From an uncultured Clostridia bacterium (lineage in GTDB: Bacteria > Bacillota > Clostridia > Christensenellales > UBA1242), in contig CANPWN010000005.1 in the NCBI GenBank assembly GCA_947584415.1, positions 9,142 through 73,141 of the forward strand: a stretch of DNA of 64,000 nucleotides, in the 5' to 3' direction. The notes beneath the pieces are model-generated. The model was not told the origin of the DNA. It was given only the letters and a program-made list of their open reading frames with translations, and did not search any database. The position numbers were made by a program, and so were the translations under genes. Of the stretch, positions 9,682 through 50,000 are shown piece by piece (position 1 is the first letter of the stretch; each line of letters starts with the position of its first letter).

Positions 9682-9690
9682 CTTTTCCTT

Positions 9691-12417
9691 TTATTCGTTT
9701 GCATTTGAGAACATGGACCTGATATAGTCCTGCGCCACAACTTGAATCATCGTTCTGTTTGTTGGGCCAGTGATAAGGAAGGCTTGTCCCAAGCCCGCCG
9801 TTACAATGGCGTTTTGCTCTTCCTCGTTGATACCACCAGATTTTTTATAAAGTTCAACAAGGTCGTTGATATCATTTGGAGCAAGTGAGAAGATTAGTGA
9901 ATACTGGCAGGCGTTAATAACCGCAGTGGACTGCCTTTGAATTTCCTCACTTCCCACAAAGTCGGTGATGTTTTGGGTGATGACAATTTGCATACCCCAA
10001 TACTTTCTGATACGCTTTGCCATTTGTGCCATAAAGTCCAAAGCAATTGGGTAACGCGGGTTGATAAAGATGTGCGCTTCGTCAACGGCAATGATGATTT
10101 TACGGTTGTTTTTCTTGTCATTTTTGTGATATTTTGCGTTGAAATCTTTGTTGTTGATGATTTCATTGTTCAAATATCTGAAAACCAAAAGCATCTGTGC
10201 GTTTGTTAAAAGTGCGTTGTTGTTGGCAATCAGAGATTGGAAGTTGAAGCAAACAAAATTTTCATTTGTTTCAATGGAAGTTGGGCCGTTCCACAACTTG
10301 CTGTTTCTTCCGCCCGCTGCAAACTTTTTGATGTAAGTTTCAATTGTCATAAGGTTTTTGAGAGTAAAATCATCTTTAGTTTCTTTAATTCTTCTCAAAA
10401 TCAACTTGTAAAGGTCATCAAAGATTGGATAATCTGCCGGCTTTTTGTTGCCAAGATAAGTGTTTTCATCAATACCTTTTTCTTTGTAAGTGTCAACAAT
10501 AAGTGAGTTCAAAAGTTCAAACGCATCTGAATTTATGCCTTCCAAAATTGACCTGAAGAATTGTTCCAGGAACTGCAAGTGTTGTGAATAAGAGTCATTG
10601 ACAACCTCAACTTTTTTCTTTTTCTTCTTAAGTTGAAGAGTACTCATGTCAACCTCTTGTTCATCCTCTTCCTGTGGGCCCTCGTCCTCCGCCTCATCAA
10701 GAGATGCAATGATGTGGAAAGGATTGATAATTCCGTGCATTGATGAACCAACATCAATGTATTTTCCGCCAAGTGATTCTGTCAAATGGGCATATTCTTT
10801 TTCTGGGTCCAAAATGAAGATTTTGCAGTTGTCTGCCGCCAAATTTGCAAGCAATGTTTTTGTGGCATAACTTTTTCCTGAACCTGATTTTCCAATTACC
10901 ATCATGTTGGAGTTAACACGCGTGTTGTCACGGGCGAAAAAGTCAACAAAAACTGGATATTCATTGTCACCAATGTAAATTCCGTTTTCATCTTGCAGCG
11001 CACTTGAAATAAATGGGAAGACTGCAGCAAGAGTTGATGTTGGTATGCCACGACGGTAATTTTTGATTGTATCTCTGCGAGAAATGTTTGAACTGATGAA
11101 AGCGTCTTGCTGGCGGGCAAACATTTCGCTGAATTTAAAGCCGCTTTGCTTGAGCATAGCCTTTACATCACGCTTTGCCGCATCTTCGCAAGTGATGAAA
11201 GTGTTAACATCATAAAGTTGCTGGTTGTTGTTTTTTAAACTTACAAGCAAATCTCGAAGTGTGTCAACATGGGTTTGAAGTTCAATTTGGCTGGAAGAAC
11301 GCCCCGTTCTTGAAAGTTTGCTTTCCATGTCCATGATGGCCTTATCAATTGAGCGTTCTGCATTTGCTTTTGGAACTGGATTGAACTTCATGACAACTTT
11401 TGTTCTGTCAAGCAGGAATATTTCCGAACCCCAAGCGTTGCCAACATTTAAAGGATAATCCGTGATTGCATAAGTTCTGAACGCTGCGTCATCAATGAAA
11501 TACTTTGCAGCTTTAAAACGCACGCTCTTTGGCTTTGCCCACTCAACATGCTTGGACAAAGGTAAACTTTCAAGTTCACGTTGGTCAAACTCACGACCAT
11601 AATTGGCACGAAGGAAAATTGCAAGGTCTTGGCCATAAAGCCTTTTTGCTGTCATAGGCGCAAGAGATGCCGCAAGTGAATTTATCATGCCGTTGACGGT
11701 GTTTTCCAAAAGTTCCATGTCTTTGTCAAACACAACAACATAAAAGTGGTCCTTGTAAACTTTGTTCTTTCTGTTTAAGTCCTCCATGTAGGACACTCTT
11801 TCTTCGAACACAGGGCTTCGCGAGTCAACTTCGGCCTCCGAAACCTGCCCTTCATATTGCATTTCAAGCAAAAGTTCATATTTTTTATTTTCGCTGTATA
11901 TGTAATTATCCAAAACCATGGCAAGATTGAGTTTTATGATTGAGCAAGTTTGGTCAGGCGTCAATCTTCGAAGTGCGTTGGCAAAACTTTCAATAACATT
12001 GTCCTGAGTGTATTCAGTCAAAAGTCCAAAAAGCACAGGTTTGATTTCAATCACTTGCCCATAGTAAGTGCCATAGTTGATGAACCTGTCCTGATAAATG
12101 CTTTCAAAAGGTATCATTTCGCTGATATCAGAGTGTTTGGATTTTTCGGTTGCGGCGGTGAATCTCTTTTTCTGCGCCATAAACCTAAACAAATGTGCAA
12201 CGGTGACATACATCCTTTCTTCATCAGAAATTTTGATGAAAATTGAAATAAAGAAAATTGTGTAAACTGCGGCTATCCAAAAATGAGCTGGAAAGTTTGA
12301 GGCAAACAAAACAATTGCAATGGCTGCGCCAAGAACAGCTAAAATGAGGTCAAGACCTGTCACGCCCCTGATAAATTCCAATTTAACTTTTGTCTTCCTA
12401 GGAATAATACGCTGCAT
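9691..12417 (-). CDS. VirB4-family T4SS-type ATPase (Gram-positive CD1110/TrsE/TcpF-like) with an N-terminal PrgI/VirB3-like two-TM segment fused to it.
   Basis: 908 aa, RBS AAGGAGA. The N-terminus has two hydrophobic helices (LDLILAVLGAAIAIVLF, FWIAAVYTIFFISIFI). Walker A is VIGKSGSGKSYATK (about 10868-10900), followed by FILDPEKEY...GGKYIDV...INPFHI; Walker B is IIIAVDEAHIF. The stop at 9691 lies 10 nt before the ATG of the giant lipoprotein gene. Confidence 0.8.
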   Translation of the reverse strand: MQRIIPRKTKVKLEFIRGVTGLDLILAVLGAAIAIVLFASNFPAHFWIAAVYTIFFISIFIKISDEERMYVTVAHLFRFMAQKKRFTAATEKSKHSDISEMIPFESIYQDRFINYGTYYGQVIEIKPVLFGLLTEYTQDNVIESFANALRRLTPDQTCSIIKLNLAMVLDNYIYSENKKYELLLEMQYEGQVSEAEVDSRSPVFEERVSYMEDLNRKNKVYKDHFYVVVFDKDMELLENTVNGMINSLAASLAPMTAKRLYGQDLAIFLRANYGREFDQRELESLPLSKHVEWAKPKSVRFKAAKYFIDDAAFRTYAITDYPLNVGNAWGSEIFLLDRTKVVMKFNPVPKANAERSIDKAIMDMESKLSRTGRSSSQIELQTHVDTLRDLLVSLKNNNQQLYDVNTFITCEDAAKRDVKAMLKQSGFKFSEMFARQQDAFISSNISRRDTIKNYRRGIPTSTLAAVFPFISSALQDENGIYIGDNEYPVFVDFFARDNTRVNSNMMVIGKSGSGKSYATKTLLANLAADNCKIFILDPEKEYAHLTESLGGKYIDVGSSMHGIINPFHIIASLDEAEDEGPQEEDEQEVDMSTLQLKKKKKKVEVVNDSYSQHLQFLEQFFRSILEGINSDAFELLNSLIVDTYKEKGIDENTYLGNKKPADYPIFDDLYKLILRRIKETKDDFTLKNLMTIETYIKKFAAGGRNSKLWNGPTSIETNENFVCFNFQSLIANNNALLTNAQMLLVFRYLNNEIINNKDFNAKYHKNDKKNNRKIIIAVDEAHIFINPRYPIALDFMAQMAKRIRKYWGMQIVITQNITDFVGSEEIQRQSTAVINACQYSLIFSLAPNDINDLVELYKKSGGINEEEQNAIVTAGLGQAFLITGPTNRTMIQVVAQDYIRSMFSNANE

Positions 12418-30489: not shown

Positions 30490-31206
30490 TCATTGAAAAG
30501 TTTCAAATTTTCGGTAAAAATTCTTTGAAATAATTCCATAAATTCCGTCTTGGCCAACAATAATATGGTCGACCAAATTAACTCCCAAAGTGCTGACCAA
30601 ATCTGAAATGATTTTTGTGCCTTCAAGGTCAGTCTGTGATGGAAGCGCGCTACCTTGCGGATGATTGTGTGCCAAAAACACATACGCAGGACAAAGACCT
30701 GTTATGTATTTTGCAATTTGATGAGTGCTTATCCCAACGCTAAGCAGCCCGCCAGTTGCAAGTTTTGTTTTAAACATGAGTTTGTTTGACGCACTGATTC
30801 CAACCAAATAAGTTGTTTCAACAGATTTAAATCTCAAAAGTTCTTCAAAAAAATCTGCAACATCTGAGCGGTATTCAAAAGCGTATTTTTTGACAAGTTG
30901 TTGTTCATTAAAATAGTCAAACACCTCGGTCAAAAGATGCAACTTTTTCGCAGATGTTTCACCCATCCCCTCTATGTCCGCAAGCAAAGTCCAGTCCGCA
31001 TTTAAAACATTGACAAACGAGCCAAAACGGTTGAGCAGTCTGTGTGCGATTTCATTTGTGTCGCAGCGCGGCATAATGTAAGTCAAAACAAACTCCAGGG
31101 CGACAACATCACTAACATTTTCAAGCCCAGCATCCATAACCGTTTTCATCAAGCGTTGTCTGTGACCAGCATGCAAATTTTTGTTTTTCTCTTCACTCTT
31201 TTTCAC
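30490..31206 (-). CDS. radC: RadC-family JAB/MPN domain protein.
   Basis: GHRQRL is near the N-terminus and the JAMM motif is AHNHPQGSALPSQTD. The start codon is GTG. Confidence 0.85.
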   Translation of the reverse strand: MKKSEEKNKNLHAGHRQRLMKTVMDAGLENVSDVVALEFVLTYIMPRCDTNEIAHRLLNRFGSFVNVLNADWTLLADIEGMGETSAKKLHLLTEVFDYFNEQQLVKKYAFEYRSDVADFFEELLRFKSVETTYLVGISASNKLMFKTKLATGGLLSVGISTHQIAKYITGLCPAYVFLAHNHPQGSALPSQTDLEGTKIISDLVSTLGVNLVDHIIVGQDGIYGIISKNFYRKFETFQ

Positions 31207-31213
31207 GAGTAAA

Positions 31214-31242
31214 ATTTTAACATTTTAACCAAATTTTGACAA
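31214..31242 (-). promoter_or_regulatory. Candidate promoter, TTGTCA-17 nt-TAAAAT.
   Basis: Minus-strand reading is TTGTCAaaatttggttaaaatgtTAAAATtttactcGTG. The -10 box ends 7 nt before the GTG start, with no SD. Confidence 0.45.
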
Positions 31243-31269
31243 ATATTTTCATGTTGTTTCCAAAAAAAA

Positions 31270-31352
31270 TATGCTATCTCTGCGACAAACATATCTTCTG
31301 CGAATAATTACGGCATAGTTATGGCAGGGCAAGGCAGCAATGGCTATCGTGG
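31270..31352 (+). repeat. Left arm of the 83-bp inverted repeat (partner 32790-32872).
   Basis: Base-by-base hand alignment gives 81/83 identical (88/92 if extended to 31361/32781). Homology starts abruptly at 31270 and flanking sequence outside it is unrelated. Confidence 0.85.
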
Positions 31353-31987
31353 GAATGACGGCTACAGTGGTAAAGACACAGATGACGGTTCATCACCAGG
31401 TGAAGGTAAAAATGGTGAAGAGGGTGGTGCCGCAGGAGACACTGGAAAGGCTTATATGTCAGGGATAACCGAACTTTCTGGTTCAAAACCTGCCAATAGC
31501 ACACCATCCGCCGGTTTAACAGGCAACACCGGTTGGGGCGGACTTAACTTATATAAATATGAATCTGTTATTAATAAAACATCAGGGGAATTTAACTATT
31601 ATAAGAGTTGGCTTAGCAGATGGAAAGATGTTCCATTAAATTATAATAATTCCGATTCTTCTCATAAGACCAATGTATATTGCGATTTCTATTTTTCTTG
31701 GGGTGGGACGACCTCAAGTACAAAAACAAACTGGGTTGAGGGTCCTGACACTAATCCTGATGGAGAAAACTATCCTTATCAAAATAGTGTTTACATCGAT
31801 TGCACATGCGGATATGATTATAATTATTATATCATCACAAGTGATAAACCTAAACTTTATGGAAATATTCTTTGGGCAGAAATTCGTGTTCACACAAAAA
31901 CATGGCTTGCAGGTAAAGGTGCTGATGTTATAGATGGATATAAGAGTTTTTATGTCATCAACCAGCCAAACAGTGCAAAATTATCAG

Positions 31988-32028
31988 AACACAAAACCAC
32001 AACCTTATTCAGGTTGTGGTTTTGTGTT
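31988..32028. terminator. 18-bp perfect palindrome with a 5-nt loop at the junction of the two convergent C-terminal cassettes; probable terminator/stabiliser hairpin.
   Basis: AACACAAAACCACAACCT-tattc-AGGTTGTGGTTTTGTGTT. It starts at the giant ORF's stop codon (32027-32029). U-tracts are weak on both sides. Confidence 0.55.
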
Positions 32029-35000
32029 ATACATTTACTTCCGTAATCTTTGACTGCTTTGATGAATCTATGACTTTTTGACCTTGAACAACAGTCCATT
32101 TAGGAACCAAATAAAGGGCTAATTCAATACCTCTATCTTCGTGATTTAGTAAATCATATTCTGCTGTTGTTAAATAGGCATTACTCCAATAATAATTTAT
32201 TAAATAATAATATCCGTTATCTTCAAAATAAGCACCATCACTCTTCATTATGCCATCCTGGCCAGAATTTTTGCCATCGCCATTAAATTCTCTCATAAAA
32301 GTATTATATCCTGGACCTTTGGCTTCAGTTATTTCGGGATATCTAATGTAACCTGTTGTATTTGCACAATATCTAAATTCAATATTAGAATCATATAAAG
32401 CAATTTGTAATTTTTCAGTATTTCCATTTACACCAACGTTCGATGCTTGTTTATATCCTCTACATTGCAAATATATGCTCCTTCCATTCCATAATTTGAA
32501 TATTTCATTAGAGGCTAACATTGCTTTTACCTTCCATCTTCCACTTTCGTATTTATGCAAATCTAAGCCGTCCCAACCGGTGTTGCCGTCCAAGGCTCTG
32601 TATTCTCCAGTCCCCTTTCCATTTTCATCTTTTATTTCAACACCATTTTTGTTTATAGCGGCTTTAATTTCTTCTTTTTTTGGCATATAGGCTACACCTG
32701 GTGCGCCATTTTCACCGCCAGTTCCTCCTGATTTGCCTTCGGTTGGCGCTGAACAATCATCTGTGTCCACACCGCTACTGCCGTCAGTTCCACGATAGCC
32801 ATTGCTGCCTTGTCCTGCCATAACTATGCCGTAATTATTCGCAGAAGGTATGTTTGTCGCAGAGATAGCATAAACGCTTTGCCCTGCGGTGCCAGTTTCC
32901 CCATAAGGATAACCCTTAAATATCCACAACACTGAAACATTAAACGCATGAACACCATCAAGACCAATAATCGTGCCAAGATTGCTGATTTGACTGCCAG
33001 TAGCCGCGTTATTGATTTTTGGGCTAATTCCAAACAAACTTCCGTCTGTTATTTTTTTAGCCTTCGTTCCGTCGTGAAAAACAATTTCCTTTGTTCCATC
33101 TTGATAGCCAATATCCTTAACACAGAAGGAAGCATAATTTGAAATAGTCAAACTGGTATTTTCTGCTTCTATTGCGTTTGCAACTGTGCCTATATTTGGA
33201 ATTCTTGTTCCGTAATTCGCTCTCGTCACAATCACGGTGCCAAAAGTTCTTATGTTGTAAGAATTTGACATTGATTCCATGTAAAGTGGATGGTTGTTTG
33301 TTGTTCCTGCAACGGTAAGGTCTTTAATAAAGCCAAAGTCGTCTGAGCCTTTAAATAAACTGTCACTGATAGAAAGGCTGAAATTAAGTGCAAATCTGTT
33401 GCCAAATATATTCACTTTTTTGCTGATATCTTTTGAGCCAAGAATAATCGGGTTGGTTTGCACGAGAAGAACATCTCGCATAAGCACAACTCCTTCGCCA
33501 GATGTTGCTGTTTGTTGACTTATTATAACACTATAATTTGTATCCGTGTAAGTGTAACCACTCTTGCCAGTGAAATCTAAAGCAAAATCTTTGACTTCAT
33601 TTGATGGTGGGCAAGTTACTGTGGAGCCAACTATAACTTCACCATTTCCGCCACCTGTGTATTCGTGCAAAGTTGCATCATATTTGAAATCAAGTGAAAC
33701 TGTTGCTTCAGCATAATGTAAGCCGAAATTAACAACATTTTCTGCCTTATCCGTTAATATGTCTGAAACAACCAGAACAGAATTGATTGGGAAATAACCA
33801 GATGAAATGGATGCAGTTATTCTTATTTTATTACTATCATCTTTTTCTGCGGCAAAAGTTACTCCTTCAAGATTGATTTGTTCATCTTCATAGTTTACTG
33901 AGTATTTAACATCTGCAATATCTATTGTGTCTTCAATATTGGCTTTTACTGCCACTTCCTTTCCATTATCTTCGTAAATGGACAAGGCTTCGCCGTCAAA
34001 CCAATAGAAATAGTTTTTGCCATTTACTGAAATCTTGCCGTCTTTTCCAATAAGCCATGCTCTTGTAAAAGTAAATTTGCCGTTTTGATATGTAATTGCC
34101 CATTCATAACCTTTAGCAAAAAACATATCTTCAATATATCCTTCTTCATCAACTTTGAACAGCTGCCCATTTACTGTCAACTCATTTTTTTCTTTGTCAA
34201 AACTGAGAGTGTATTCTTCACCATCAAGGGTCACTTTCCCTGCTGTTTCGCTAACAGTAACTTCATCAGCCTCTGCTTCTGCACGCACTAATGTTAACCT
34301 TCTTTCATAAATGCCTGCAACGAAATCTGTGCCATTTACAAGACTTGTTTTGCCAGATGGCCACACTAGGCCTGTGTCAACTGACAGGCTGTTACTTGCA
34401 GAGGATGAAACAATATATTTGTGCGAAATAATCACATCTCTGTAATAATAGAAGGATGTTAAATTTGTGCCGGCGGAGGATATCACGCTTGTGTAATAAT
34501 AGATATGGTCATCAATATTGATTGAATGACTGCTGCCATAATAATTTTTCTCGTTTTCTTCATCGCCTTTGTTTAATATCAAGAAGAGTGTGTTATCAGA
34601 ACTATCGAAATTTACATAATATTTGTTTCCATTGATAACAACCGTTTGTGTTCCATCAGTTGCTTTGTCAATGTTAACATATGTCTTGTAACTGTCAACA
34701 TTTTCATCTAGTGTAATGGAGCCATCAATTATTTTTGAATCATCTAAATAACGGCGTGAGAAAGTGATATTTTCATTGGTTTCGCCATAATATGCGTGCT
34801 CAATAGACTTTAAACGCCATGTGAGCAGTCCAGTGCAACTGTAACCAGAAGAAACTCCTGAGCCTACATCCGTGCTTTGTTTTGTTTGAGTGGAAGCGTT
34901 TCTGATAAGTTCATAAGTGTATGTATAACTTCCGTCACCTTCAACATCGACACTCTGAGTTTTTGTGCCAATAACAGCATTGGCAGTGTTAAGAATTGAG

Positions 35001-38000
35001 TTATCTAACTTAATATCCCAATAAGTGCTTGATGATGTTTCATTTGATGAAATATATCTATTCTCATACTCAGCGCGTATTTGTAAGCCTGCCAAGAAAG
35101 TGTTTTCTATTGTGCAGTCATATATTCCAATGTCATGGACAGTATTCACTGCTTCCTTGCACACAAGTTTAACATTAACAGTTGTTATGTCCGTTTTTGA
35201 ATCATAACTTGAACTTTCAATATAGAAAGAGCCTGCGACATTTTCAAGTCCTGCTCTTGTGGTGTTCAATTTAAAATCACACAATTTGACTTCTCCTGAT
35301 GCGCCAATGGTGTAAGTTGATGTGTTGGTTAAATCGAATATCCAGTAATAAAGTCCACCCGAATTGTCATGGCTTGATGCATTTATGGTTGAAGCTTTCC
35401 CTTTGATTTTTACTGGGAAAGATACTGTTAGTTTATCTGAACTGTAAGTCAAATCACCACGGGTGATTCTGTTGCCATTTGTCGGGTTGCCTGTTGAAAT
35501 CATTCCTTCGTATCCAAGCGAACCTCTTTGTAAAAGGCGCAAGGCTTGTGTGTAACTGTCATATTCCGACCAAGACACCTTTTCATACGCAGATGGCACT
35601 GAGAAGGATTCTGTTTGCAAACCAAAATCATCCATGGTTACACTTGCACTAAATCTGCCAGTGTAAGTCTCGGTTTTGCCTTGATTGATGTTAAATGTGA
35701 TAACGTTGTTCTTCAATAATTCAAATTTTCCTTTTGCATCGGCACCTGTGTAAGTGAGCTTTTGCGTCGTTGCATCTGTTGCCACTGCTTCTGCTTTCAT
35801 TGTAAGTTCAATTACTTCACCATCAGCGTTTGGAACACTAATTTTAACATCACCTGCGACAAAATCACCTTCAGAAAGGTCATAGTAAATCGTCACCACA
35901 TCATCATCTTTGCTTTCAGAGTTTTCACCTTCACTGAACAAAATGTTTGCCGCATCCACATGAACGGACACTTCTCGTGGTTCAAAGGATGCTGTGATTG
36001 TGTAAGAAATGTTGACACGTGTTGGTTTTCCATCAATAGGAACTGCAACATTAAAAGATATTGAGCCGTTGCCAGTTGTATCCACAATCAATGCACTTGT
36101 GTTAATCGTATTTTTATTGCTGTCAGTCGCTGAAACTGAGAAATCATAGCCTGCGCTATAAAGGTCTGAAATGTTTTTGCCTTTTATTTTTCCATTATAT
36201 GAAACCTTTTCCCAACTATATCCAAGTTGAGCGTTGCTTACAAAATCATCTCCATTATAAACAAAGTTAAGTGTTTTTCCTCCAACTGAAACACCGCGCG
36301 TCTCAGAGTCGTCAGTTATACCTTTTTGAATTTCCTCAAGAATTGCCGTCTTCGTGTTTGTGCCTTGTTTATCACCAGAAACACGACAGAAATCTTTGTA
36401 AGTTTCACCATAATCCAATTGAACAGTTCTTGTGTAAACTTGTTGTTTAATTTTGTTATTTCCAGGATACTCTATCTCTCTATCACAAGAGATGAAGTAT
36501 GATGACATAACCCCCAGTTCGTCAATCTCTGCAATATGCACTTTGAAATTACTAAATGTTGTTAATAGCTTGTATGAATTAAGTTCAAATTTATTTTTTT
36601 CAACTTGTTTATCTACTACTTTTTCTTCTCCTACCAACATAAATTTTTCAAAATAAAACGAACCAACTTCTGATGAGTCTGCATCAAAGCCAAATTTCCA
36701 TGGTGCCGTCCCGTTAAAGAATGCTTCTCCGGAATCATGATTTGAGCCAGTGAAAGTTGAACCACTGATACCTCCAACATAGACAAGCTGATTGGTCACA
36801 TTAATAATATCTACAGCTTGGGAGGTCTTCACAACCAACACTCCATTCGAATCGTCACTAAAAGTTACAAAAAAGTTATCGTTTACTTCATCCGCTTGCT
36901 GCAATGGCGCTGAAGGGTTTTTGCTCAACGCTTCAATAAAGCCCTCATTTGTGCAATTTGTGATTGAAATTGTTGATGATGAATAACCCAAAATTCCGCC
37001 GGCATAAACCTTAGATGCGTTTTCTTTGTTGCCTGCTTTGACCATGGAAGTGTTGTAGCAATGGTCAATTGTTGATGTTGTATTTCCAACAATTCCGCCA
37101 GCGTAGAAATTGCCACTTCCACCTGTGTAACCAGCAAAGACAGTGTTTTCATTTCCGCAATAATTGATTGCTGCTGTTGTGTTTCCAGCAATTCCACCCG
37201 CTATGCCGTCATCTGAATTTTTGTCTACCGCTATTGTGTTGATTGGAGCATAGTTGATTGAGTTGGTGATTGTGCCTGTGGCATTTCCGACAATTCCGCC
37301 AATTATTGTGGCTGTCGTGGAGTCAACTTTGACATAGTTTCGGCAATTTGTGATTACTCCTTTGGACGAGCCGAAAAGTCCGCCGGCTGTTGTGCCTGAG
37401 GTTGAACTGATATATCCTTGTGCGCTGACATTGTCCGCATTTACAACACTTTCAGCAACAACAGCATCCATTGCTACGCCTGAGTCTGGAACAATTACTT
37501 TAACATTATCTATTGTTTTAATTGAACTGAATAATGGCTTAGCTAATGCTTGATTTCCAATTGCGCCACGGTTAATGATGTGATAATTGCCATCAAAGGT
37601 CATGTTGCTATAGTCAAAGTCTTCAAATATTAAGCCTGTGTATTTATCGTCGACCATTTTGCCGACCTTTGTCAAATCAAGGTCATGATAAAGGACAACC
37701 TGACTGACACTTGCAGATTTTCCTGACAATTGTGCAAGTTTTGTCGCATTAAAGGCAACATAGTATGCACCAATTTCTTTGGAATTACATTCAACCCACT
37801 TATCATCTGTGAGTTTGGCGTAACTTGAGCGTTTGAACGCATTGAAATTGCGGTATGGATAGCCAAAGTTTATAGCCCCATCCTCTTTCCAATAAATTCC
37901 ATTGGTGAAGGAAACTGTGTTATTATCACCTTGCGTTAATTCTTCTTCAAGGTTTGTGTTTCTAATCTCCATACTTTCTGGGTCATAGGCAAAGCTTTTG

Positions 38001-41000
38001 AATATAACCCCGCTGCTTGTTGCACTAGAACCGGAAGTTATAATGCCAAGGTCACCATATATTGACAATTTGCCACTTGCATCAGCCGCTGAAATGTAAT
38101 TTTGTTGATTCAGCCAAGAAATTGTGTAACTGTTTCGAACAACTGTTTTTCCACTTGCAATATTTGCAAAGGCGTAAAGATTTGCAGAGATATAGGACTG
38201 GACATTGCCAGTTGAATAACTTGCATCAATAAAGTTGTTTTGACCGCTTATGTTTGCAACAAGACCTGCGGCGCTGCCAGTTGCAGCGGCACGGTAAGTG
38301 ATGTCCACACTGCTGTAACTTTCTGCAATTCTTCCGCCGTTCATTTCTGCCACAAGTCCACCAATGTTGCCAACTGCACTTCCGCCTATTGAAAGTTTTC
38401 CGCTGACCATTGAGGCGTAAATTATGCCGCCTGAGAGTTTTTCTGTAAGTCCGCCATAATATTTAACACCTGTGTCAGTTGTGCCTTCCTGCTTTTCAAA
38501 AGTAATGCTATCCACAGTGTCTTCCTGGCTATATTTAATGTTAAAGCCAGAGATGAAACTATGCTCTTTAATTTCAGTTGTGATGTTGGAAGTTCTTACA
38601 TTAAAATCACTGATTAAAGCAAATGGTTTCTTTGAACCATCTAATTTCAAGTTATTAATGTTTGAAGCAGATGAAATGGAGTAATAAACAATTCCATGAC
38701 TTCCAATGGCATCAGTTGAGCCTGCTAAATTTGCGTCTGAAATTGGGTTAAGTTTGCTGCCCACAACACCCGTTGAAGGCAACAATTTGTTTATGATTGT
38801 TGTTGTGTTGTCAACCACCTCGCCATAGCCTAATGTGAAGGTGTTGTATCCAACATCTTTTGCTCTTTCGCTATCACTTTTTGCAAGCACAAGTTGAGAG
38901 CAATAGAAGTTAACGGAAGGAATATCTTTAATGGTTGCTGTAAAATCATGCCCGTTTCCTATCATGGCGTCTGTAAGATAATTGTCATTGTTTTCTTCAT
39001 TGTTATTATAGCGAGCATTGTTGTTTGTGAAAGCGGTGACATTACCTGCTAAATTTATTGTTGTTACAGATGCTTCCGCTGAGCCAATCAACCCGCCAAA
39101 GGTGTAACTTTGAAGTGCCGTAAATGATGTGGAGTAAGTGTAAATTGCATCACCATAGGTTTTGTTGTTTGAAAGGTTGACTGCTCCTTTTTGCACAAAG
39201 CCGACAACACCGCCGACATAATGCTCTTTGCCTTGATTATTGTCATCATTAAATTCAAACGCACCGCCAAAGATTGTGTCACTTAAGGTGATGTCTGCAC
39301 TCACTTCACCAATCATGCCGCCAACCTGAACCTTTCCGCCAACAAAGAACACTGAATTAACTTCAGCCTTGGCAAGAGTTGTTTCTGCGCTCGTGTAGCC
39401 CACAAGACCGCCCACATAGCAGCCTTCAGCAACAAAGCCGTCAATTGAGTTAGATTTGAAGGAGAAAGTTCCATCTGATTTAAGCAAGTCAGAAGCATGG
39501 TAACCAACCAATTCACCAGCGTAAATCTTTCCTGTTGCTGTGAAAGAAATGTTTTCCTTTTGAATCCCGTCATCAGGATTATTAAAATTGATGTCGCCAC
39601 CGAGGGTTAAAGATGAATGGTTTTGTCCAACCAAGCCACCAAAATAAAGGTCGTTTCCGCTCTTGAAAGGTTCAAGTTTAAATTCAAAATTATTTGCGTC
39701 TCCCGCAGTCGCATCTTTTACGGAAGACAAAAGTTTAATGTTAATGGTGTCTACTCTAAGCGAGGCTTCATTATATCCCACAAGTCCGCCAATGCTGAGT
39801 AATTCGCTCTTTGTGTCACCTGAAGTGTTTTGAATTGTGCCATCAATTTCAAGTGACGACAAATTCAAATCTCCTTGCACATGACCCACGACAAAGCCAG
39901 CATTTGTTGTTCCTTTGATTTGACCATTAAACATGATTTTTGTTTTGAGTTGATGTTCTTCAAATGTGAAATGAGTGATTTGCATATCCCCTGCAAAACC
40001 ACCGACATTAAGTGATGATGTTGGGGCTTGACAATCAAGATAGAGTTCATGTTCGCCGCTAAGATTCTTTGTGGTTATGCTTGTTTCGGCATATCCAACA
40101 CGGCCAAAATATCCTCCAAAGTTTGCGCTGGAGTTATCCTCTGTGGAAGAGAGAAGCAGGCGTGTTTCCACATCTCCTTGGTTTAAGTCGGTTGGAGATT
40201 GAATATCAATTGTCAACTTTGCAAAGTTGCCATCTTTTTCGCCCTTTTCTATCACTCTGCCAACATACAAGCCAAAGTTCACTGATTTTGCGCCACCGTC
40301 AACCTTTGCCAAATAATATTTGTTTAAATTTGCATCATGAAGGTCGTTATGCATGATGCTGATGTTTTGCACACGCAAAGTTTGATACAAACTGTTTTGT
40401 CTGATTGTTCCTGCAACAAGACCGAATTCAACATTTCCCTCGCCACCACTTGGCTCAACAGTCACGACCGCATTTCTTCCTTCAGAGAGTTTATCGGCAA
40501 ATGAATTGCCATCATTGAATATGAAAGACACATCAAGGATTGATGAACTTACAAAACTTGGAGCAAGCAAACCTGCTGCACCACCATAAGTTGACATTTT
40601 AACCATTGAGCCAATATACATTTTGATTGATGAGAAAGAAGCATTTTCAACCTGTGTTGCGCAAAGGAATCCTCCCTGAACCGAATAGTTGTTGGTGCTG
40701 TCCTTATAAACTGAAGTTGAATCTGCAGTGCCTGTGTCACCAGAGCCTGCAATAGTTGCACCGCCGGTGTCCTCTGTGTCAACAAAGATTGTAAGATTTT
40801 GGATATAAACACCCTTTGCCACTGTATTAAGCCATGGATGACGACCAATTATCACACCTGGATAATTTGTTGTGTTTGAATAATTATTGCTGATTGGGCC
40901 AAAGCCGTCCCCCCACTCAGTGTCGGCTGTGCCACCTATAATTCTTCCGGAGAACTGCTCAATTGCATTATTGTTTTCGCTCAAAGTTTTAAGATATGGG

Positions 41001-44000
41001 CGAAGGTCAACATTTTTATATTCTCCATCTTCATTTCTGCCACGAACTCTGATTTCAATTGATGAACGGTTCATCTTGTTGAGCACATTTCTGATGCTCT
41101 CATCTGTGGCGTCAAGATAAAGATAATTTGCTGTGTTGATAAAACTTATGACTGGGAAAAGCCTGTTTTCATCATGTGTCCAGTGAGTTATATCCCATGC
41201 ACCAGAGCCCATAAATGCGCCGTTTGTTTCCGTGAAGCCCGCTGTTTGATTTTCATAATTAGAAACAGAAGTGATTTCGTAAACTCTGTCATCAAGGTCC
41301 GTTGGGGCGGTGTAACCTTCATAAGGCACAACCTCAATCTTTTTGTCTGGGTTTGATAATGCTCCCCAAGTGTATTTTTCCATGTAACCCAAGACTTTGC
41401 AATCTTTTTCGTCATCTTTGCCAGAAAATGCTGTTTCAGATGGGAAGATTGTGATTTTGTCTCCTACTTTTTCGCCTTCGGCTGGGGCAACAATTCCGCC
41501 AACAACAGCATACAATGTTGCAGATTCATAATCGTTTTCTGCAATTCCATAAAGGTTTACTGCATTGACAGAGTTAAGGACGATTGTTGCATTTTGTGAT
41601 TGTTCTTGAATTACTCCAAAAAGTCCGCCCTGTGCGTCTTTGGCATAAACATCACCAGAAGCATAAACTTCATTTAAGTAAACTGAGCATTGAACATTTG
41701 CGTTTGTGGAAGGTCTAACAACATCAAAATTGTTGGTTGGGGAAACAACGCCGCCCGCAATTCCACCAGCATAACTTAATGTTTTTGTTGTGTGGTTGAT
41801 GGCATTGATTTTGCTGTATGCCACATTGATAGCAGCTGAGCCAACAACACCAAAAAGTCCGCCAACATGGGTTGGGTTGTAATCATAAGTTCCTGACTCT
41901 TTTTCGGTAAATGTGAACAAATCAAGAATTCCGCGCTCAACTGCAATTGCGGATGCAAGAGAATTTGATTGATAGTAAGCCTTTGTGCCATCTTCAATTG
42001 TGTTTTGAAGGGTGCTTTCATGCTCTGAATAGATTTGATAGAATTGACCATTGGCATATCCTATCAAGCCACCGGCAAAGTTGTTATAAGAAAGGATGTC
42101 GGCATAGCCATCATCTGTCTTCGACAATTTGAGTGCCAAATCTTGTGCCTTTGTTTTAACGCCGCTGTAACCAATCACTCCGCCGACAACTTCGCCACGG
42201 ATGTCTATTGAGCCTTCAACATGCAACATGCGTGTTGTGTAATTGTTGAGATTTGCGTTGTAGTCAAAAAGATTTGCGTTTTGTTGCGTGTCGGAACTGT
42301 CAAGATATCCAACAATGCCGCCGGCAAATGAATAAAGCCTGATTGTTCCAGCGTCACTGGTGCCACTTCCAAGCGCGGCAAAGAATCTGTCACTATCTTT
42401 GTTTGCCCTCAATGTTTCTGGGTCAAAGATTGTCAAATATCTTGCATTATTTTCATTGTCTGATTTTGATGAACGCGTTGCCCTAACTTTGATATTATTT
42501 GCTGTCAAACCATTAAGTCTGCTGTTTCCAAACACAACACCAACAATTCCGCCAACAGCGTTGACACCATTGACGCCATATTTTTCTTCCTCTTCTTTGT
42601 CGCCTGTTGTTATGTCAGAAATTGCGTTTTGTGTGACTTCAACATCAATGATAACGCCATCATTAACCATACCTGCCAAAGTTCCAACAACTGGAACATC
42701 AGTGAAGGTGACATTTTGAATTTCTATGTTAAGATTTTTAACCATGCCGCCATCTATCTTTGAGAACAGACCAGCCGACTTAACATTGTTTTTCTGATTT
42801 TCATTAAAGCCAAGTCCTAAAAGACCAAGTGACACATCTTCAAGAGTAAAGCCGTTGCCGTCAATTCCGCCTGTTAAGGTTTTTATTATTGATGAAATAA
42901 CCGCATTTCCCTTTTCACCACCGCCCAAATCAGCGTTGATTGATGAGAAGTCTGCGTCATCAATCAAGCGGTAATAACCTTTAACTTCTTCGTCTGTGTA
43001 TTTGTTTTGAATAACAGTTGAATTTGATTCGCCCATGGCATTTTTAAAGTCTTCAGCATTTGTAATCAAAATTGGGTTGTTTTGTCCGCCATACTCACTG
43101 CCTTCCAGTGTGCTATTTGCATTTGTCATTTCAGTTGCATAGACAAACACATAAGTTTTTCCGTCCACACTGTTTTTGTATCTATGCCCAAAGGTGATAA
43201 CATCACGGCTGACAAGTTTTACGCCTTCACCCGGAACAATTTTCCATATTCCATCATTTCTGTAAGATGCCTCTGTGTTTGAGATTTCGCCTGAGTCAAC
43301 ATTTGCTGATGTGGCAAACACAAAGCCATAATATGCCTCCTCTTTGCTTGCAGAATCAGCATCTATTGGCGCAGGTGCGCCATCAATCACGCTTTGCAAG
43401 TTGTTGGAATCATCATTTTGATAGCCTTCAAGATAATAATAACAATGCTCTATTGTTCCTTTATTTAAACTTTGTCCGTTTTTGTCCACTCCAGAGAAAT
43501 TGAGTTGGAACAAATCTGCTTTTTCAACATAGCAAGCAGTGTAAGATGTTCTAACTTTCCCAAAGTTGCTGTAAACAAAGCCGGAACTCATAATGCTTTT
43601 GATTTCTGTGTCATTGGCAATTGCAATGTTTGCATAGCAGTCCGTAATGCTGCTGTTAGCATCTTCTCTGGTGCCATTGTCAACAACAAAGCCTGCAGTT
43701 GAGCCTTTTGATGAAATGTTTGTGCCCATCAAATTGTAATTTGTTGTCTGACCAGCAAGTTTCATGCCTTCAACATAACTGGAGTTAATTCTTCCTGAGT
43801 TTGAAACAACAAAGCCGGCTGTTTTTGAGGTTGTAAGAGAACTTTCATTTGTGATTTGAATTTGACCTGCACCGCTTGATGCAATAGTGCCTGAGTTGTT
43901 AAGCACAAAGCCTGCCATATCACCCTGTCCAAGCAAAGTGAATTTGCCAAGTGAAATAACCTCATAATCTGAGGTTGGATAACCGCTGCGTGTGACATGT

Positions 44001-47000
44001 CTGGTCAACTGCCCACCCACTTTTGAGTTGGTTATATTTCCAGAGTTGTCAAGAACAAAGCCTGCCACCTCACAATCAATGGTTGAGTCGGCAATATAAT
44101 AACTGTTTTCGCCACGCTTAATTTGAACTCTTAAGCCAACATCTCCACTTGCTGCGGCAACTTGTGTGTCATAAGCGACGACTTCGCAGTTTGTTATTAT
44201 TCCTCTGTTTTCCAAAGCAAAACCAGCAACATGAACGCCGGTAACCTGAGTTTCCCCTGCAATGTTGATATTGATGTTTCCACCATAATAATAGTTAACT
44301 TTCAGGTTTTTGATGATTGAGCCATCAGGTATTTCTGTGAAAAGAGCCAATCTTATATCAGAAGATGAAGGCATTTCAAAACTTTGTATGTTGATTGTAA
44401 AGCCGTTTCCGTCAAAGGACCTCATGTTCTTTGCTGAAATAGGCTTGTAACCAACAAGAGTGATGTCATTTGCCAAGATGTAATCCTGCATTGTGCCGTC
44501 ACCACCAAGGTTTTTAAAGAAATCTGCGTCCTCAACTGATATAGGCTCATCACCTGTTGAATAGTCCATGATATTAAGGCCAAAGTTTGTTTCCACAGTG
44601 TAATTAACCGCAGTTCCCACTTTGCCAAGTGAAATGTAATCTATAATTTTGATGTTGATTGGACTTGAGGTGTTTCTAAGGCCAATTGCATACAATTCTT
44701 GTGTGCTTGCAACATAATTAAGGCTGAAAGAGGTTGTTGTGTAACTCCAAACATCACTGGCGGTGTTCACAAAGTTGGCTTTTGTTGAGCCGACATACAA
44801 CCTTTCATAAATTGGAATTACATTTTGATTTTTATCACAATTTATGTAAAAATCAGAATTCGGGTCGATATAATAGCCTTGTCTTTCAAATTGTTGACGC
44901 TTGCCAAGCAAAACATTGACCTGATTTGCTTCGTTTGGGTCTGTGGTGTCATAAGCATATTCATTTGGGCTGAATTGATGTTTGAGCTTTATATCTGCCC
45001 TAAAACCATTTGGAACAATGAGGACATCTCCGCCAAAAGATGCGTCATATTCCCCGCCTTCAAGCTTTGATGCCGCTGGCAAAAAGTCGACCAAAAGAAC
45101 GGAAACATAAGAGCTTTTCTGCTCCGGAATGCCATTAACATCTCTTGCAACAGTGACAACAAGTTGGAACTGACCGTTTGTTTCTACATCTTCATATTGC
45201 ACATTTGCATTTAGGCCTGCAAACATGGTTGCAGTGAGAATTTTTGTTCTTGTGTCGGCTGGATTTTCTTTTTCTTCCCATGTTGAAACAGAAATGCCTT
45301 TGGCTCTTGGCCATGCAATTGATTGAATATTTTGATTTTTGTTAAGGATAATCTTCAAATCTGCCGTGCCACCTTTTGCAATTGCGGCAATTGCGCCATC
45401 ATTGATTGTAAGGTCTGCAATTGGCAAAACAGAAATGTTAAGGGTGTAAGTTTGTGGCGGAGTAATTACTTCACCGTCTTTATCATAGAAGGTTGCAATA
45501 ATGTCAAAGGCTGTGTCTTGGGCAATGTCTGCGCCAACATAAATTCTGAAAATATAAACGCCATTTGCATCTGGGTCATAGTCAACTCTGATGCCATTTT
45601 GTGTGTTTGTGCTGTTTGCGTCATACAAGAATTTTGCTGTTTCATTTTGATATCTCTTCAATCTTGTGATGCCAAGCACATAGGATGTTTGAGTTGAGTG
45701 CGGCAAATATGTGAGTGTGAAGTTTTCATAATAAGCAAACGCTGGGTCAACAACAAGTTGCAAGATTGATGACCTGCCCGGCGACAGAGTTGAAACAAAG
45801 TCGTCCGCTCTTGTGTAAATACGCGTGCCGTTTGGGGCAAATTCGTCTGGGTTTGAACGGTAGTTTGCCATGTCAATGTAATCAATTGGCTGGCTGGTGA
45901 AACTTATGACAATTGGCAAGCCTTCGTTGTCAGCGTAGCCAGACTCTGAATTAATCAAAAGTGTGTAAGTTTCAAGTTTGCTGATTTGTTGACGGTAATC
46001 ATTATCAAGCCAAATTGACAACATGAATTTGACGCAATTTTCTTCGTCCCATGCGTCAGCATTCTTTGTCACTTTGACATAGAACATATACTGATTTGGC
46101 AAGTTTTTAAACTTGAAAAGTTTGTCGCCATTTGCCTGATTTTGCACAACTGGTTCTAAGCCAATTTCCTCCAAAGCAAAGGTCAAATCATCATCTTCTT
46201 TGTCGGTTTGAAGTCTTACTTCAAAGGTTGCCGTAAATGCAGGCTCAATCAAAAGTTTGTCCACACTTGCAGAAATGTGAATTGAACCTTTGTTTGGAAT
46301 AACGGTAAATTTTGCTTTATTATGCTCTTTTATTACATTTTGATAGGTCGTGCCCAAATCTTTAACTTCAGGCCATGCGCTCATTTCAAGTCTTTCAAAA
46401 ACATCTGCTGCATCAATTCTTTTGCCACTTACCATTTTGCTCTTTGCAACAAGCGTTCCTGTCAGGCCATTTGTTGTGAAACTAACCAAACTCTTGTCCT
46501 CAACCTGACCTGTTTTTACTGTTGTATTGTCAGTGTTTGTTTTAATTTCAAAGTTGTCCATCCTGATGTCAAATGGTTTTGGATTATTTGCAAGATAAAT
46601 TGACTTTTCAAGGTCAAAGTCAATGAATTCTGACCTGTTTGTGCCAACAAGCAAGTTGACTTTAATGTCATTGACAACATTGTTATATGTTGCCATAAAC
46701 TTATCAACCGCATGGGTGATTTTTAAAGTTATTTGACGCTGAAGATTAAAGTTCTGTTTTGGTCTGATTTTTAAGGTGACTGAGCCTGTTTGCCTTATTA
46801 TTAAACTTGAGCCAATAACCTCAACCACTTTCTCATCACCAGAAAATGCCACAAGTTCGCTGGCAATTTCATCTTTGAACAAACTTGTAAGTGAAATTGT
46901 GTTTATTCTTTCTAACGCTGCACTTTCACTTGCAGAAAGTTCAGACGCTCTGTCAAGTTCTCTGAAGTAAATCAGCACTTCTGAGCTGTTGACATAAAGG

Positions 47001-50000
47001 GCCTTTGTGTAATCATTTTCAACAACATCTCCAATTTTAAGGCCGCTTAAAATATCCTCAGTGATTTCTTGAGGTTGGAAAATTCCTTTAAGGTGTGGCT
47101 TGCCATCTCTTACATAAGAAAGGAAGCCGGCGTCACCTGCACTTACCCAGTTTTCAGAATTGGATTTAACATCACCACTTCCGTCAAGTGTGTAATATAT
47201 GTCGCTAAGTTTGGCTGATGACAAAATTGTTGCATCATCAAGGCCAGTTTGTTTCAAAATTGCGAAAGACAATGAAATTTGTGCGCCCTCTTCCACTTCT
47301 GCTGCAAATGAGCCTGAAGTTTTGGTTGCATTTAGCACATTTGAAGTTGTGAAATTATAGGCGTAAGAATTCAAAATCTTGCCCGTTGCATCCAGTTTGC
47401 CGACAATTCCGCCAACATAAGCGCCGCTGAAGGTGTTTGCCGCCGAAGAGAACATATAAAATTCCACTTTGCTGTCAGTTATTTTGCCTGAGTTAATGCC
47501 GGCAATTCCGCCAACATAAGTGTTTTCGCCTGTTGCGGAGATTGTTGCCCCTTCAACAGAAACTGCTGAAATTGTGCCATAGTTTTCACCCACAACCACG
47601 CCAACAAATTGTTCTTGTGAGTTCACCATGCTTGGAGTTGCTGAATCCGAAGTTGCGAGAACCGAAATCTTAACATTGTTTATAAGTCCAAGGTTGGTTT
47701 GTGCAACTATGCCTGAACCTTTGACGCTGCCATTAAAGGTCAGTCTTTCAATTTTTGCTGTTTCGGAGATTTTGCCAAATAATGCACCTGAATTTGTCCC
47801 AGCGAAAGTCAAAGTGATTGAGTCATTATAACCCTTAAGTGTTCCATTGAAGGTTGCATTTTCAAAAACTGTCCAATCGGTCAAAGTCAAAGAACGCATT
47901 AAAACATAGTGCTGTGACAAATCTATGTTGGAAAGTTCAGAGGTGGAGTAAATTCGAAGTGCCGTTTCTTCACTTGAGCCATCTGCAACAACCACTCTGA
48001 GTTTTAACATCACATCCTTATAATATATTTTAATTAAAGTTGAATTGTCGCGTCTGTAAAAATATCCTTCAATGATGTTGTCATATTCGTCTGCAATTTT
48101 TGTGACTGACACATAGTGTGCTTCCATGCCTTCCGGCAAAAGTGAATTGTCCGTGTAATAAACAAGCGTATCCGTTGAACCTTTTGAAATTATGCTGTCA
48201 TCTGGATAAACATAAATATATCCTGTGCCACCTTTTGGCTTTTGTCCGTTTGAAGGACGCTCAAAAGACACAAGTCCAAGCGGGCTGACATCAACAAAGT
48301 TGTAATCAATTCCGTCATCTGCAACAAATTTATATTTTAAGGTGTTGTTTCTTGCATTGTAAGGTTTGACATCTGTGATAATAGGAAAAGATGTGTCTGT
48401 TACCAGCGAGCCTGTTGCATCCAAATATATAACGCCATCATCTGTTTGGTTGCGCCAATCAACTGATTCAACACGCTGTGAATTGATGATTTGCACCGAC
48501 ACCGAGCCTGTGTAAACACTGCCAAAAACCCTGTATTCAAGGATAATCTGGTCAATATGGCTTGAGTAACCATCAGTGGAGTCCGCAACAATATCAAAAG
48601 AGAGGTTGGTTTTGTTGTAAATGATGTTTTCTATGTGATAATATTCGTTTCCGCCGTTAATAATGAAGTCTTTTTCCTTATGAACCAAAGCCTCATTTGC
48701 AGAATAGATTTTGAAAGATGACCTCGTGTCGTTTTCATCTCCATAATATGTGATGCCTTTTGAGTCTACCCTATATTTGACTGTTATGTGCGCTCTGGCA
48801 CGTTCACTTTCATGGCTAGACACAGAATTTTGTGCTAAAAGTTCCTCACTATCACCTTCAACTTCAGGCATAAGGCTTGATGGGGCTGTGTAGGCTTCAA
48901 TATAAAATATTCTGTAGAACAAAAGTTCCGTGTGGTCATCTGTTAAACCTTCGAAAGTTATGAGTGCAAAGCCTTTAAAATCATTGGTAATGGAAATTGT
49001 GCCTTCAGAATATTCCACCTTTGTTGACGCGTCAGCTGTTTGAAGTTGAAGGATAAAATCATTGATGTTGTCAAGATTGCTTAGCCATGCTTCAGGGTTG
49101 CTGCCAAATTCCATCTCAATAAATTTTGGTGTTTCCACTTTAACTTTGGTGTTGCTCGAAAAAGCCACATTTAAGTTTGTTCCAGTTTTGATGAACACAT
49201 ATTCAAGGCTGTTGTCACCTGTGCCAACAAATTCTGGTGTGTTTGAAAAGTTTTGGGTTGCATAGCCACTCTTTGAAGCGGAAGTTGATGATGCGCCAGT
49301 AAGTTCAACTGAAGCGTTTGTCATTGATGTGAACCCGGTCACAACAAAATTGTTTTCTGATTTAAAGCCGCTTTCATGTTCAAAGTAAATAATGCACTTT
49401 TCATTGTCAAGACCAAGCTTTTTATTTCTCACGGTCAGTGATATTGTGCCATTTTTCCAATCATAACCATAATCAATAATCTCAAAGTTTTCGCTTGATG
49501 TCGCTGCCGGACGCCAAGTTATGCCTTGAATGCCAGCAAGGGCAGGAACAACAAATTCTTTTGTGAAGGTGTTGATTTGAGATGTTGTCATGAAAACTTC
49601 AACATCTCCCTCTTCTCCCAAACTAAAATTGCTGTTTGGCGCTTTAAAACAACTGAAGTTCACATCTGAACGAACATTGGTTGATTGTTCTGAGATAAAA
49701 TTAAATTTGATTTTTTCCGGTTGCTCGGTCTGTTCAGCCGGGTTGTGATTTTCAAAATATTCGTCCGCAACATAGATGTAAAGTGTTGTTTTGTTGTCAA
49801 GCAATTCGCTTTTGTATGTGTTTCCTTTAACATGAGTGAAGTTCACTTCCGTCATGCCCGTGTTGGTTGAGCCAACATTGACGGAAACCCAGGAATTAAC
49901 ATTTTCTTGGGCAGGGTCAACAGCGCCATCCAAAGGCAAAGTTACTTCAATATAGAATTTGGCTTTGTCATTGTCCACTGATTCAGGGCCAAGTTCAACA

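Follow-up and report, generated by a model that had tools for sequence, protein, structure and literature searches.

Gene-altering programmed inversions (Milman et al. 2023, PMC9881135), also termed 'partial intergenic invertons' (Chanin et al., PMC10028968), yield alternative alleles and have been surveyed in isolate genomes, in which the families hsdS, PilV, PglX, SusC/D and phage tail proteins were enriched. Both surveys note cases without a nearby recombinase. In pneumococci, the 85- and 333-bp repeats of the spnIII locus invert without CreX or RecA at percent level per colony (PMC6620402), and the inversion of long coding repeats without a recombinase is a question that was left open for spnIII. 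A locus of the same general class as the surveyed inversions was analysed here in a stretch of 64,000 nt from an uncultured Clostridia bacterium (positions 9,142 to 73,141 of contig CANPWN010000005.1), which is referred to as the window. It lies at the 3' end of a gene for a giant surface lipoprotein of 6400 amino acids (aa). We consider it quite probable that this locus is a working tip switch, in which a gene-altering (shufflon-type) inversion exchanges the end of the protein. No mention of this giant-lipoprotein family or of the lineage was found in PMC9881135 or PMC10028968.

Architecture of the locus

The gene for the lipoprotein occupies 32027-51229 on the minus strand, and its product carries an N-terminal signal peptide with a lipobox (...VFAAC). 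Towards its 3' end, the gene contains one arm of an inverted repeat. This right arm (32790-32872, minus strand) encodes YAISATNIPSANNYGIVMAGQGSNGYRG at codons ~6120-6147. The left arm (31270-31352, plus strand) heads a silent cassette in the same reading frame and encodes the same 28 residues with S for P. The arms are identical at 81 of 83 nt, the two differences being T/C (Ser/Pro) and a synonymous G/A. A pattern search of the window with the left arm returned just these two matches, with 0.00 expected from 100 shuffles. Per 20 nt, 20, 19, 19 and 20 positions were identical, followed by 14, 15, 14 and 11; thus, the repeat starts sharply on the outside and fades on the inside. At a lower level, the similarity reaches inward as far as 32713 in the right arm and 31429 in the left one, and the pair was extended to 160 nt at 83% identity in a repeat search. 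The outer edge of the silent arm is set by a conserved neighbour, the radC-family gene (30490-31206, minus strand).

In the window, five G-X-Y triplets follow one another in the arm peptide and the sequence that continues it (32790-32830, minus strand; GSN GYR GTD GSS GVD), and the same stretch reads GGN GGR GAD GVG GKD in the arms of a sister species group. It is a short collagen-like stretch. A loose, hix-like dyad (TTCGCA-N12-TGCGAA) was seen in the sister-species arms and is absent from the window; it was not used as evidence.

The silent cassette, an alternative tail, extends from the arm to a stop codon (31270-32046, plus strand; 258 codons). Its frame is free of stops from 31240 to 32043 (268 codons) and is bounded by a stop at 31237-31239. 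At the local base composition, the chance of such a frame is 3e-9, and the other two plus-strand frames contain 5 and 32 stops. No in-frame ATG, GTG or TTG could be read between the bounding stop and the arm, and no promoter-like site was detected on the plus strand of the 63-nt gap that separates radC from the arm. The sole promoter-like site in this gap (31242-31214) is directed at radC, away from the cassette. Gene callers start the cassette at an ATG at 31321, giving an open reading frame (ORF) of 241 aa (P0001).

The expressed variable tail comprises the 253 codons after the arm (32030-32789, minus strand) and consists of a Gly-rich linker, a GNTGWDGLDL island and a tip of ~176 aa. In their first ~100-110 residues, expressed and silent tail are 57% identical (E 2e-31); this part comprises the arm, the Gly-rich linker and the island (GNTGW.GL.L.KYES). 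Past the island, no similarity could be detected (z 0.1). The island forms an inner inverted repeat of 42 nt with 79% identity and a 16-nt perfect core. It is found at 31522-31563 in the silent tail (plus strand, GNTGWGGLNLYKYE) and at 32546-32587 in the expressed tail (minus strand, GNTGWDGLDLHKYE) and is a candidate site for a nested inversion by which nothing but the tip would be exchanged. Beyond the arm pair and the island pair, the 64-kb window contains no other long inverted repeats.

The two tails converge and overlap by 20 nt. Where they meet, a perfect 18-bp hairpin (31988-32028; -33.7 kcal/mol, z -8.4) starts at the giant gene's stop codon; being palindromic, it reads the same in either orientation. 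The silent ORF runs through this hairpin with its last ~19 codons (31985-32046, plus strand) and has a hydrophobic end (...TTTLFRLWFCVIHLLP). AlphaFold2 models of both window tails, calculated from 13-sequence alignments, reached a mean predicted local distance difference test score (pLDDT) of 37.0 and 33.5 and were unusable. Therefore, no claim is made on fold or ligand of the tips.

Much of this layout had been claimed in a preliminary description of the sequence: an 83-bp inverted repeat with abrupt outer edges and lower identity inward, a right arm inside the giant ORF and a left arm with the same peptide in frame, a stop-free frame on the opposite strand without its own start codon or promoter, convergent tails that are related and then unrelated, and variable parts of ~253 and ~230 codons. 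These claims were borne out by the searches, the identity profile and the translations, with the S for P exchange as the single difference between the arm peptides.

The expressed gene is built of a constant body of ~6120 codons, the arm of 28 codons, the Gly-rich linker, the island, a variable tip of ~165-175 aa, the stop codon and the hairpin. A second arm-linker-island unit with an unrelated tip, promoterless and without a start codon, lies inverted directly downstream. In the proposed mechanism, reciprocal recombination between the arms would invert 31353-32789, a predicted invertible segment of 1437 bp that holds both variable tails and the hairpin. The alternative 230 codons would thereby join in frame after codon ~6147 in exchange for the 253-codon tail, which would go silent, while the palindromic hairpin would stay in place as terminator. 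In the predicted flipped state, the radC flank would be joined to an interior of the ...CCACGATAGCC|ACTGACGGCAGT type, and the gene body to GGGAATGACGGCTAC. The inner island repeat could serve a further inversion in which only the tip changes place. Because the protein is anchored by its N-terminal lipid, the C-terminus is its distal end. The switch would therefore alter the outermost ~170 residues and with them, possibly, binding specificity, or it might permit escape from antibody or phage. For the window's own copy, we infer the flipping itself and likewise the enzyme, the rate and the function of the tip.

The preliminary description had named the element an intragenic inverton that swaps the C-terminal tip. 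The switch topology stood, and both orientations were found in the sister species group. The term intragenic did not stand, as the segment runs past the stop: it includes the stop codon, the hairpin and a silent cassette that is not part of the gene, and so falls outside the intragenic class of Chanin et al. (PMC10028968). Since it extends past the 3' end of the gene, it belongs to the 'partial intergenic' or gene-altering invertons (PMC10028968, PMC9881135), with one arm in the expressed gene and the other at the head of an inverted, homologous and unexpressed in-frame fragment.

Inversion in related genomes

In the sister species group, the architecture is conserved, and natural inversion, nested inversion and gene conversion are observed. 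The group belongs to the Christensenellales and includes the metagenome-assembled genome (MAG) UBA11517 of the genus Candidatus (Ca.) Caccovivens; ten syntenic loci with the same layout were obtained from it. The name Ca. Caccovivens was given to the GTDB genus UBA11517 of the family UBA1242, order Christensenellales (PMC8035907).

A word-indexed protein search with the silent tail of the window matched this tail alone, and a scan of species-representative genomes with the last 800 aa of the giant protein returned nothing, as the body is too divergent. The relatives were found by scanning with an alignment of four arm regions, which led to a metagenome contig (L006), the MAG 'Clostridiales bacterium UBA11517' (L007) and an 'Eggerthellaceae' MAG (L008). 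A search with the silent tail of L006 then returned eleven ORFs of 198-305 aa, seven of which begin with MP[AT]KFL[VA]GSRRP.... This leader is the translated radC-side flank. It stands behind an extension of ~19 residues in P0004 and P0007, is diverged in P0005 and is a truncated remnant in P0003. The arm peptide and then one of many tails follow in all but P0003, in which the arm is deleted.

Window and relatives have the gene order giant gene, radC, orf120, orf210, uvrB, uvrA and MBL in common, and the synteny around radC is kept at all related loci. UvrB is 89% identical on the amino acid level, while the giant protein reaches only ~30-34%. The layout of the relatives is giant gene, arm, tail, terminator, inverted silent tail, arm and radC. 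The arm repeat was found at nine loci (L006, L007, L009-L012, L014, L015 and L017) with a length of 71-322 nt, 87-100% identity and intact silent cassettes. It measures 103 nt both in L006, where 62 nt match perfectly, and in L007, where the overall identity is 98%. Its outer edge lies no more than 6 nt from the same codon as in the window, the convergent silent tail is free of stops, and a terminator of A-run, hairpin and T-run stands between both stop codons. The tails of the relatives are 29-88 nt apart and the silent cassettes end at the bidirectional terminator or, with a spacer of 88 nt, in L011. The preliminary description had regarded stops or frameshifts in the cassettes of relatives as a sign of simple decay; none occurred, and ten out of ten silent cassettes examined are intact.

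Comparison of orthologous loci for both orientations, which had been proposed at the outset, gave a positive result in this group. L009 9288-10681 corresponds to L007 11400-10007 in reverse, with 98.2% identity over 1394 nt and no gaps, and the flanks are collinear (92.7% in the gene body, 98.7% from radC to uvrA). L009 is a 243-kb contig from a Hadza gut sample, and five similar contigs exist. Its ORF P0006 consists of the leader and the very tail that is expressed in L006 and L007. Thus, L006, L007 and L014 have tip X expressed and tip Y silent, L009 has Y expressed and X silent, and L015 has Y expressed and X' silent. Tip Z is expressed in L010 with V silent, and U is expressed in L011 with Z silent; U is the silent tip of the contig with P0008. 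Across the contigs of the group, the tip types X, Y, Z and U were each found in expressed and in silent position. L014 and L015, which represent the two states of the X/Y locus, are MEGAHIT contigs assembled with k=119. This exceeds the perfect part of the arms, so that mis-orientation by the assembler is unlikely.

The nested inversion was found by comparing L016 with L015, between which just the stretch bounded by the island repeats (41 nt, 95%) is inverted. As a result, linker Y is followed by tip X' in the gene, and linker X' by tip Y in the silent copy. L016 keeps the layout of the other loci, but its radC-side arm is deleted and just the 41-nt island repeat is left. It is a partly disabled switch with the island repeat as its sole remaining recombination site. 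In the reverse complement of L016 (2691-2860), the deletion comprises the arm and part of the leader, and the leader is fused to the linker (P0003).

The remaining loci carry further tips. L012 has the paralogous tips T1 (expressed) and T2 (silent) with a perfect 322-nt repeat (9246-9567 and 10365-10686 of the reverse complement, 100% identity) that spans arm, linker and island; apparently, a conversion tract homogenised the sequence up to the tip. The more distant L017 has X'' expressed and Y'' silent, with arms 99% identical over 124 nt. The tips of the window are too diverged from the sister-species tips for orthology to be assigned (z below 1).

Different tip pairings were seen among the strains, such as Z with V and Z with U. 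Furthermore, tip Y diverged far more than X between L017 and L007 (proportion of synonymous differences, pS, 0.75 versus 0.26), and also more than the flanking uvrB region (93% nt identity). Tip divergence and varied pairings suggest that cassettes are exchanged between lineages besides inverting.

A giant constant body, a conserved demarcation motif, hypervariable C-terminal modules of ~130-180 aa and many unrelated tip types that are differently paired across strains would also be expected of a locus like those of polymorphic toxins, with a variable C-terminal effector and an orphan effector module in reserve. This is very improbable here. There is no room for an immunity gene, as the tails overlap by 20 nt in the window or are 29-88 nt apart with only the terminator between them. 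The modules are convergent and not tandem, the tails have no toxin or other Pfam match, and the whole segment is cleanly inverted between strains. A polymorphic toxin with orphan modules was accordingly rejected as a candidate. A diversity-generating retroelement was rejected as well: no reverse transcriptase domain is encoded in the window, the arm mismatches (n=28) are of all types, and the repeat lies ~250 codons from the C-terminus.

In the sister species, radC and the silent arm have a GC-rich element of ~100 nt between them (GAGCGCGGGAGAGCGAGCG...GCGGGCAAAATTTTTGCTCCCGC; L006 11402-11500). It was also found in L007, L008-L012 and L014-L017, even in the cassette-less L008; the window lacks it. 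In gene calls, it appears in translation as the leader MPAKFLVGSRRPRSLRSLSRAH. Rfam returned nothing significant for the element of the relatives. It might insulate the silent cassette from read-in transcription.

Constraint on the silent cassettes

Y'' (L017) and Y (L007) are silent in both assemblies. Their comparison gave a pS of 0.75 (saturated) and a proportion of nonsynonymous differences (pN) of 0.34 without any stops; by these values, the two silent cassettes are clearly under amino-acid constraint. For X'' and X, pS was 0.26 and pN 0.18. The near-identical strains offer too few substitutions for a ratio of nonsynonymous to synonymous substitution rates (dN/dS).

A profile of the tail found just 31 representatives among 1.84 billion clusters. 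Most of them are ORFs of 200-300 aa that start inside the arm peptide (MKAGDGGNG...), i.e. silent cassettes of more distant relatives. The tail module was also found at the C-terminus of a 6076-aa and a 1494-aa protein. Annotators should note that the 'hypothetical proteins' of 200-300 aa beside radC in these genomes are silent cassettes and not genes.

The locus in its own species

The species of the window itself was sampled by an exact-protein look-up, which yielded five metagenome contigs with 99.2-100% identity to the window and ~2.5x coverage. They originate from ERZ27249433, ERZ27249426, ERZ27249236 (two contigs) and the Logan run ERR10663687. All five are independent and reproduce the junctions of the window, and thereby exclude an assembly artefact, which the preliminary description had named as a possible flaw of the repeat. 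Short-read assemblers run a general risk of mishandling inverted repeats. Nevertheless, with these shared junctions, a chance expectation of 0.00 and the recurrence of the architecture in ten other assemblies from different assemblers, the probability of an artefact or of a chance duplication is negligible.

Several observations weigh against a working switch of the proposed kind. Four of the five contigs cross an arm, and all arm-crossing sequences of the species (window, L001, L002, L003 and L013) have the reference orientation, and the ORF expected in the flipped state (MAGQG...EVNV, 264 aa) is not on record; given the low coverage and the nearly identical strains, the orientation is weak negative evidence. 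Aligned with the expressed tail and with the related tails of L012, the silent tail stops ~14-16 residues later. This extension through the hairpin may reflect slight decay or a lost stop codon. L008 (10001-10804) has a single tail of a further type and a terminator, with neither a silent cassette nor an inverted repeat. Its flanks are ~95% identical to those of L007, and homology to L007 sets in again precisely where the radC-side arm has its outer edge; hence, the switch can be lost. The differences between the sister strains are evidence of past inversion and not, in themselves, of fast reversible switching within a clone. Finally, almost every arm of the two species groups contains the same 25-nt core (CTTCTGCGAATAATTACGGCATAGT), which is taken up below with the recombination mechanism. 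The record of L008 is titled 'Eggerthellaceae bacterium', whereas its uvrA, uvrB and radC are ~95% identical to those of UBA11517; it is probably a mislabelled bin.

Some of these observations would also be explained if the arrangement in the window were a frozen relic, i.e. if an ancestral switch worked and the silent tail is its decaying remnant. The single orientation in the window and in the contigs from three samples, the missing record of the flipped-state ORF, the silent ORF that crosses the hairpin with a hydrophobic extension of 14-16 residues, and the loss seen in L008 agree with such a relic. However, arms that are identical at 81 of 83 nt beside adjoining sequence of ~68% identity require a recent exchange between the arms, 268 silent codons contain no stop (p about 3e-9), and the sample in which a single orientation was seen is tiny and near-clonal. 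On balance, a relic is improbable, and the locus is better read as a switch that still works.

Recombination mechanism

No serine or tyrosine recombinase domain was found with Pfam and NCBIfam in any ORF of at least 100 aa in the 64-kb window, or within about 30 kb of the locus. This agrees with the preliminary description, which had noted that the window encodes no such enzyme. Likewise, no recombinase is present among the called genes within 10 kb of the locus in the relatives.

The arms themselves carry traces of recombination. In an alignment of the arms from all loci, variable positions (AAT versus CAG; GGAAATGGTGG...CTTT versus GGCAACGGCGG...TGCC) are common to both arms within a genome and differ between genomes; judged by this alignment, the arms evolve in concert within each genome. 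L006 and L007 are 98% identical, and their gene-side arms differ in a cluster of eight positions (10069-10087 of L007), at each of which L007 has the base of its own radC-side arm. By this pattern, the stretch is a non-reciprocal gene-conversion tract. In addition, a T>C exchange at 10063 of L007 is mirrored at 11345. The inner limit of arm identity varies between the loci and was found at 62, 71, 87, about 100, 124 and 322 nt. Moreover, arm and island are unrelated in sequence, and both support inversion. With variable edges, two unrelated repeats and no recombinase nearby, homology-driven exchange fits better than one fixed site. In the window, the 98% identity of the arms beside sequence of ~68% identity points to a recent exchange between them. 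Most likely, the exchange is driven by homology between the coding repeats, and a dedicated adjacent invertase is less likely. The homology route could be RecA-dependent or, as at the long repeats of spnIII, RecA-independent.

The same topology could also be served by a distal site-specific invertase, either a serine enzyme of the Hin/Gin type or a tyrosine recombinase, that acts on a short core of the arm. The long arm identity would then be a by-product of the boundary between constant and variable part and of occasional gene conversion. Gut bacteria are known to have such distal enzymes (PMC9881135, PMC10028968), in either species group the repeat's outer edge is found at most 6 nt from the same codon, and the 25-nt core is conserved at 7/7 synonymous sites, compared to a baseline same-codon fraction of 0.49 (p about 0.007). 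In the cassette-less L008, this core has drifted at four positions. On the other hand, housekeeping genes of the two species (uvrA, uvrB and the MBL gene) have exact runs of 23-35 nt as well, so that the core is suggestive only as the site of a distal recombinase. Neither the ~30 kb of the window around the locus nor 10 kb in nine relatives contain a recombinase, the island repeat inverts too despite being unrelated to the arm, and conversion tracts as well as identity edges vary from 62 to 322 nt. We therefore regard a distal invertase as unlikely, if still a serious alternative. The preliminary description had left the choice between a distal enzyme and homologous recombination; the evidence leans to the latter, and the former is the less favoured part of that claim.

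It is possible, and is proposed here tentatively, that a recombinase-less, homology-driven inversion at two levels (arm and island) is kept by selection in this uncultured gut lineage of the Christensenellales. Each cell line could then alternate the distal tip of a lipoprotein of ~6000 residues, and the strains would share a large pool of unrelated tips and exchange them by way of the same conserved blocks. The locus would gain in interest if its inversion needed no recombinase, if the nesting had two levels and if unrelated tips were pooled across the population.

Neighbouring genes

The locus is surrounded by radC, two small ORFs without known function, uvrB, uvrA, an MBL-fold protein, htrA, hflX, fba, mfd and pth. 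In the body of the giant lipoprotein, weak matches to the GLUG motif and nothing else were found. The tails and the small conserved neighbours (121, 219 and 119 aa) had no match in Pfam or NCBIfam, and Rfam returned nothing significant for the window.

A second giant lipoprotein ORF of at least 3230 aa with a lipobox (...FVGC) lies at window positions 1-9690 on the minus strand and continues past the left end of the window, so that its C-terminus is outside. Its identity to the first is only ~23%. It is directly followed by a 908-aa VirB4/TraG-like P-loop ATPase (9691-12417, minus strand).

Comparison with known systems

The sister species group provides a well-documented case of natural C-terminal switching by inversion in a previously uncharacterised protein family and lineage. 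The lineage consists of uncultured gut Clostridia related to Ca. Caccovivens and occurs in human gut metagenomes, e.g. in a Hadza sample. These bacteria have small genomes, and the protein whose distal tip is switched ranks among the largest on their surface. This tip is a strong candidate for the determinant of what the bacteria attach to, or of what recognises them, such as phage or immunoglobulin A. Given that no invertase is nearby, that two repeats recombine and that conversion tracts are visible, the locus is a clean natural system for long-repeat inversion without a dedicated recombinase.

In topology, the locus resembles the G segment of phage Mu and the C segment of P1, in which the tail-fibre genes S/S' are switched by Gin or Cin. 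A constant N-terminal part lies outside the segment and two convergent C-terminal parts inside, one arm is located in coding sequence, and the distal binding tip is changed. Long coding inverted repeats are also present in P1. The phage systems, however, have an adjacent serine invertase, 26-bp crossover sites, an enhancer, Fis and a second gene (U/U') per cassette. The window has neither an adjacent invertase nor a second gene. It is chromosomal, concerns a lipoprotein of 6400 aa and contains a nested second repeat. No resolvase or recombinase domain of the Hin/Gin/Cin/Pin kind is present in the window ORFs of at least 100 aa or in the genes of the relatives within 10 kb. If the tentatively proposed two-level, homology-driven system is real, cells would have on their chromosome, and without a dedicated enzyme, a counterpart of the host-range switching of phage tail fibres.

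The R64 shufflon (pilV, Rci) is similar in that the C-terminal tip of a surface adhesin is switched by inversion, with multiple tips and nested inversions. It differs by its 19-bp sfx repeats, the adjacent tyrosine recombinase Rci and its four plasmid segments, none of which were seen here. At the locus described here, no integrase domain was found, and two repeat pairs only are present, which are coding blocks of 83-160 nt and 42 nt.

In repeat type and enzyme independence, the closest systems are pneumococcal spnIII and the S-layer locus sap of Campylobacter fetus. The latter shares homology-driven (RecA-dependent) nested inversions between coding blocks of surface proteins, which lead to antigenic variation. 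In sap, the conserved block is located at the 5' end and a promoter is moved between complete genes, whereas here the block is near the 3' end and the tail is exchanged. With the hsdS genes of spnIII (ivr), a type I restriction-modification system and likewise from a Firmicute, the locus has in common nested inversions, coding repeats (15, 85 and 333 bp in spnIII) and silent promoterless domains that are moved in, and the arm lengths of 62-322 nt observed here are in the same range. The pneumococcal system differs in that it varies a DNA-specificity subunit, has a local tyrosine recombinase gene and exchanges internal target-recognition domains and not a C-terminal tip.

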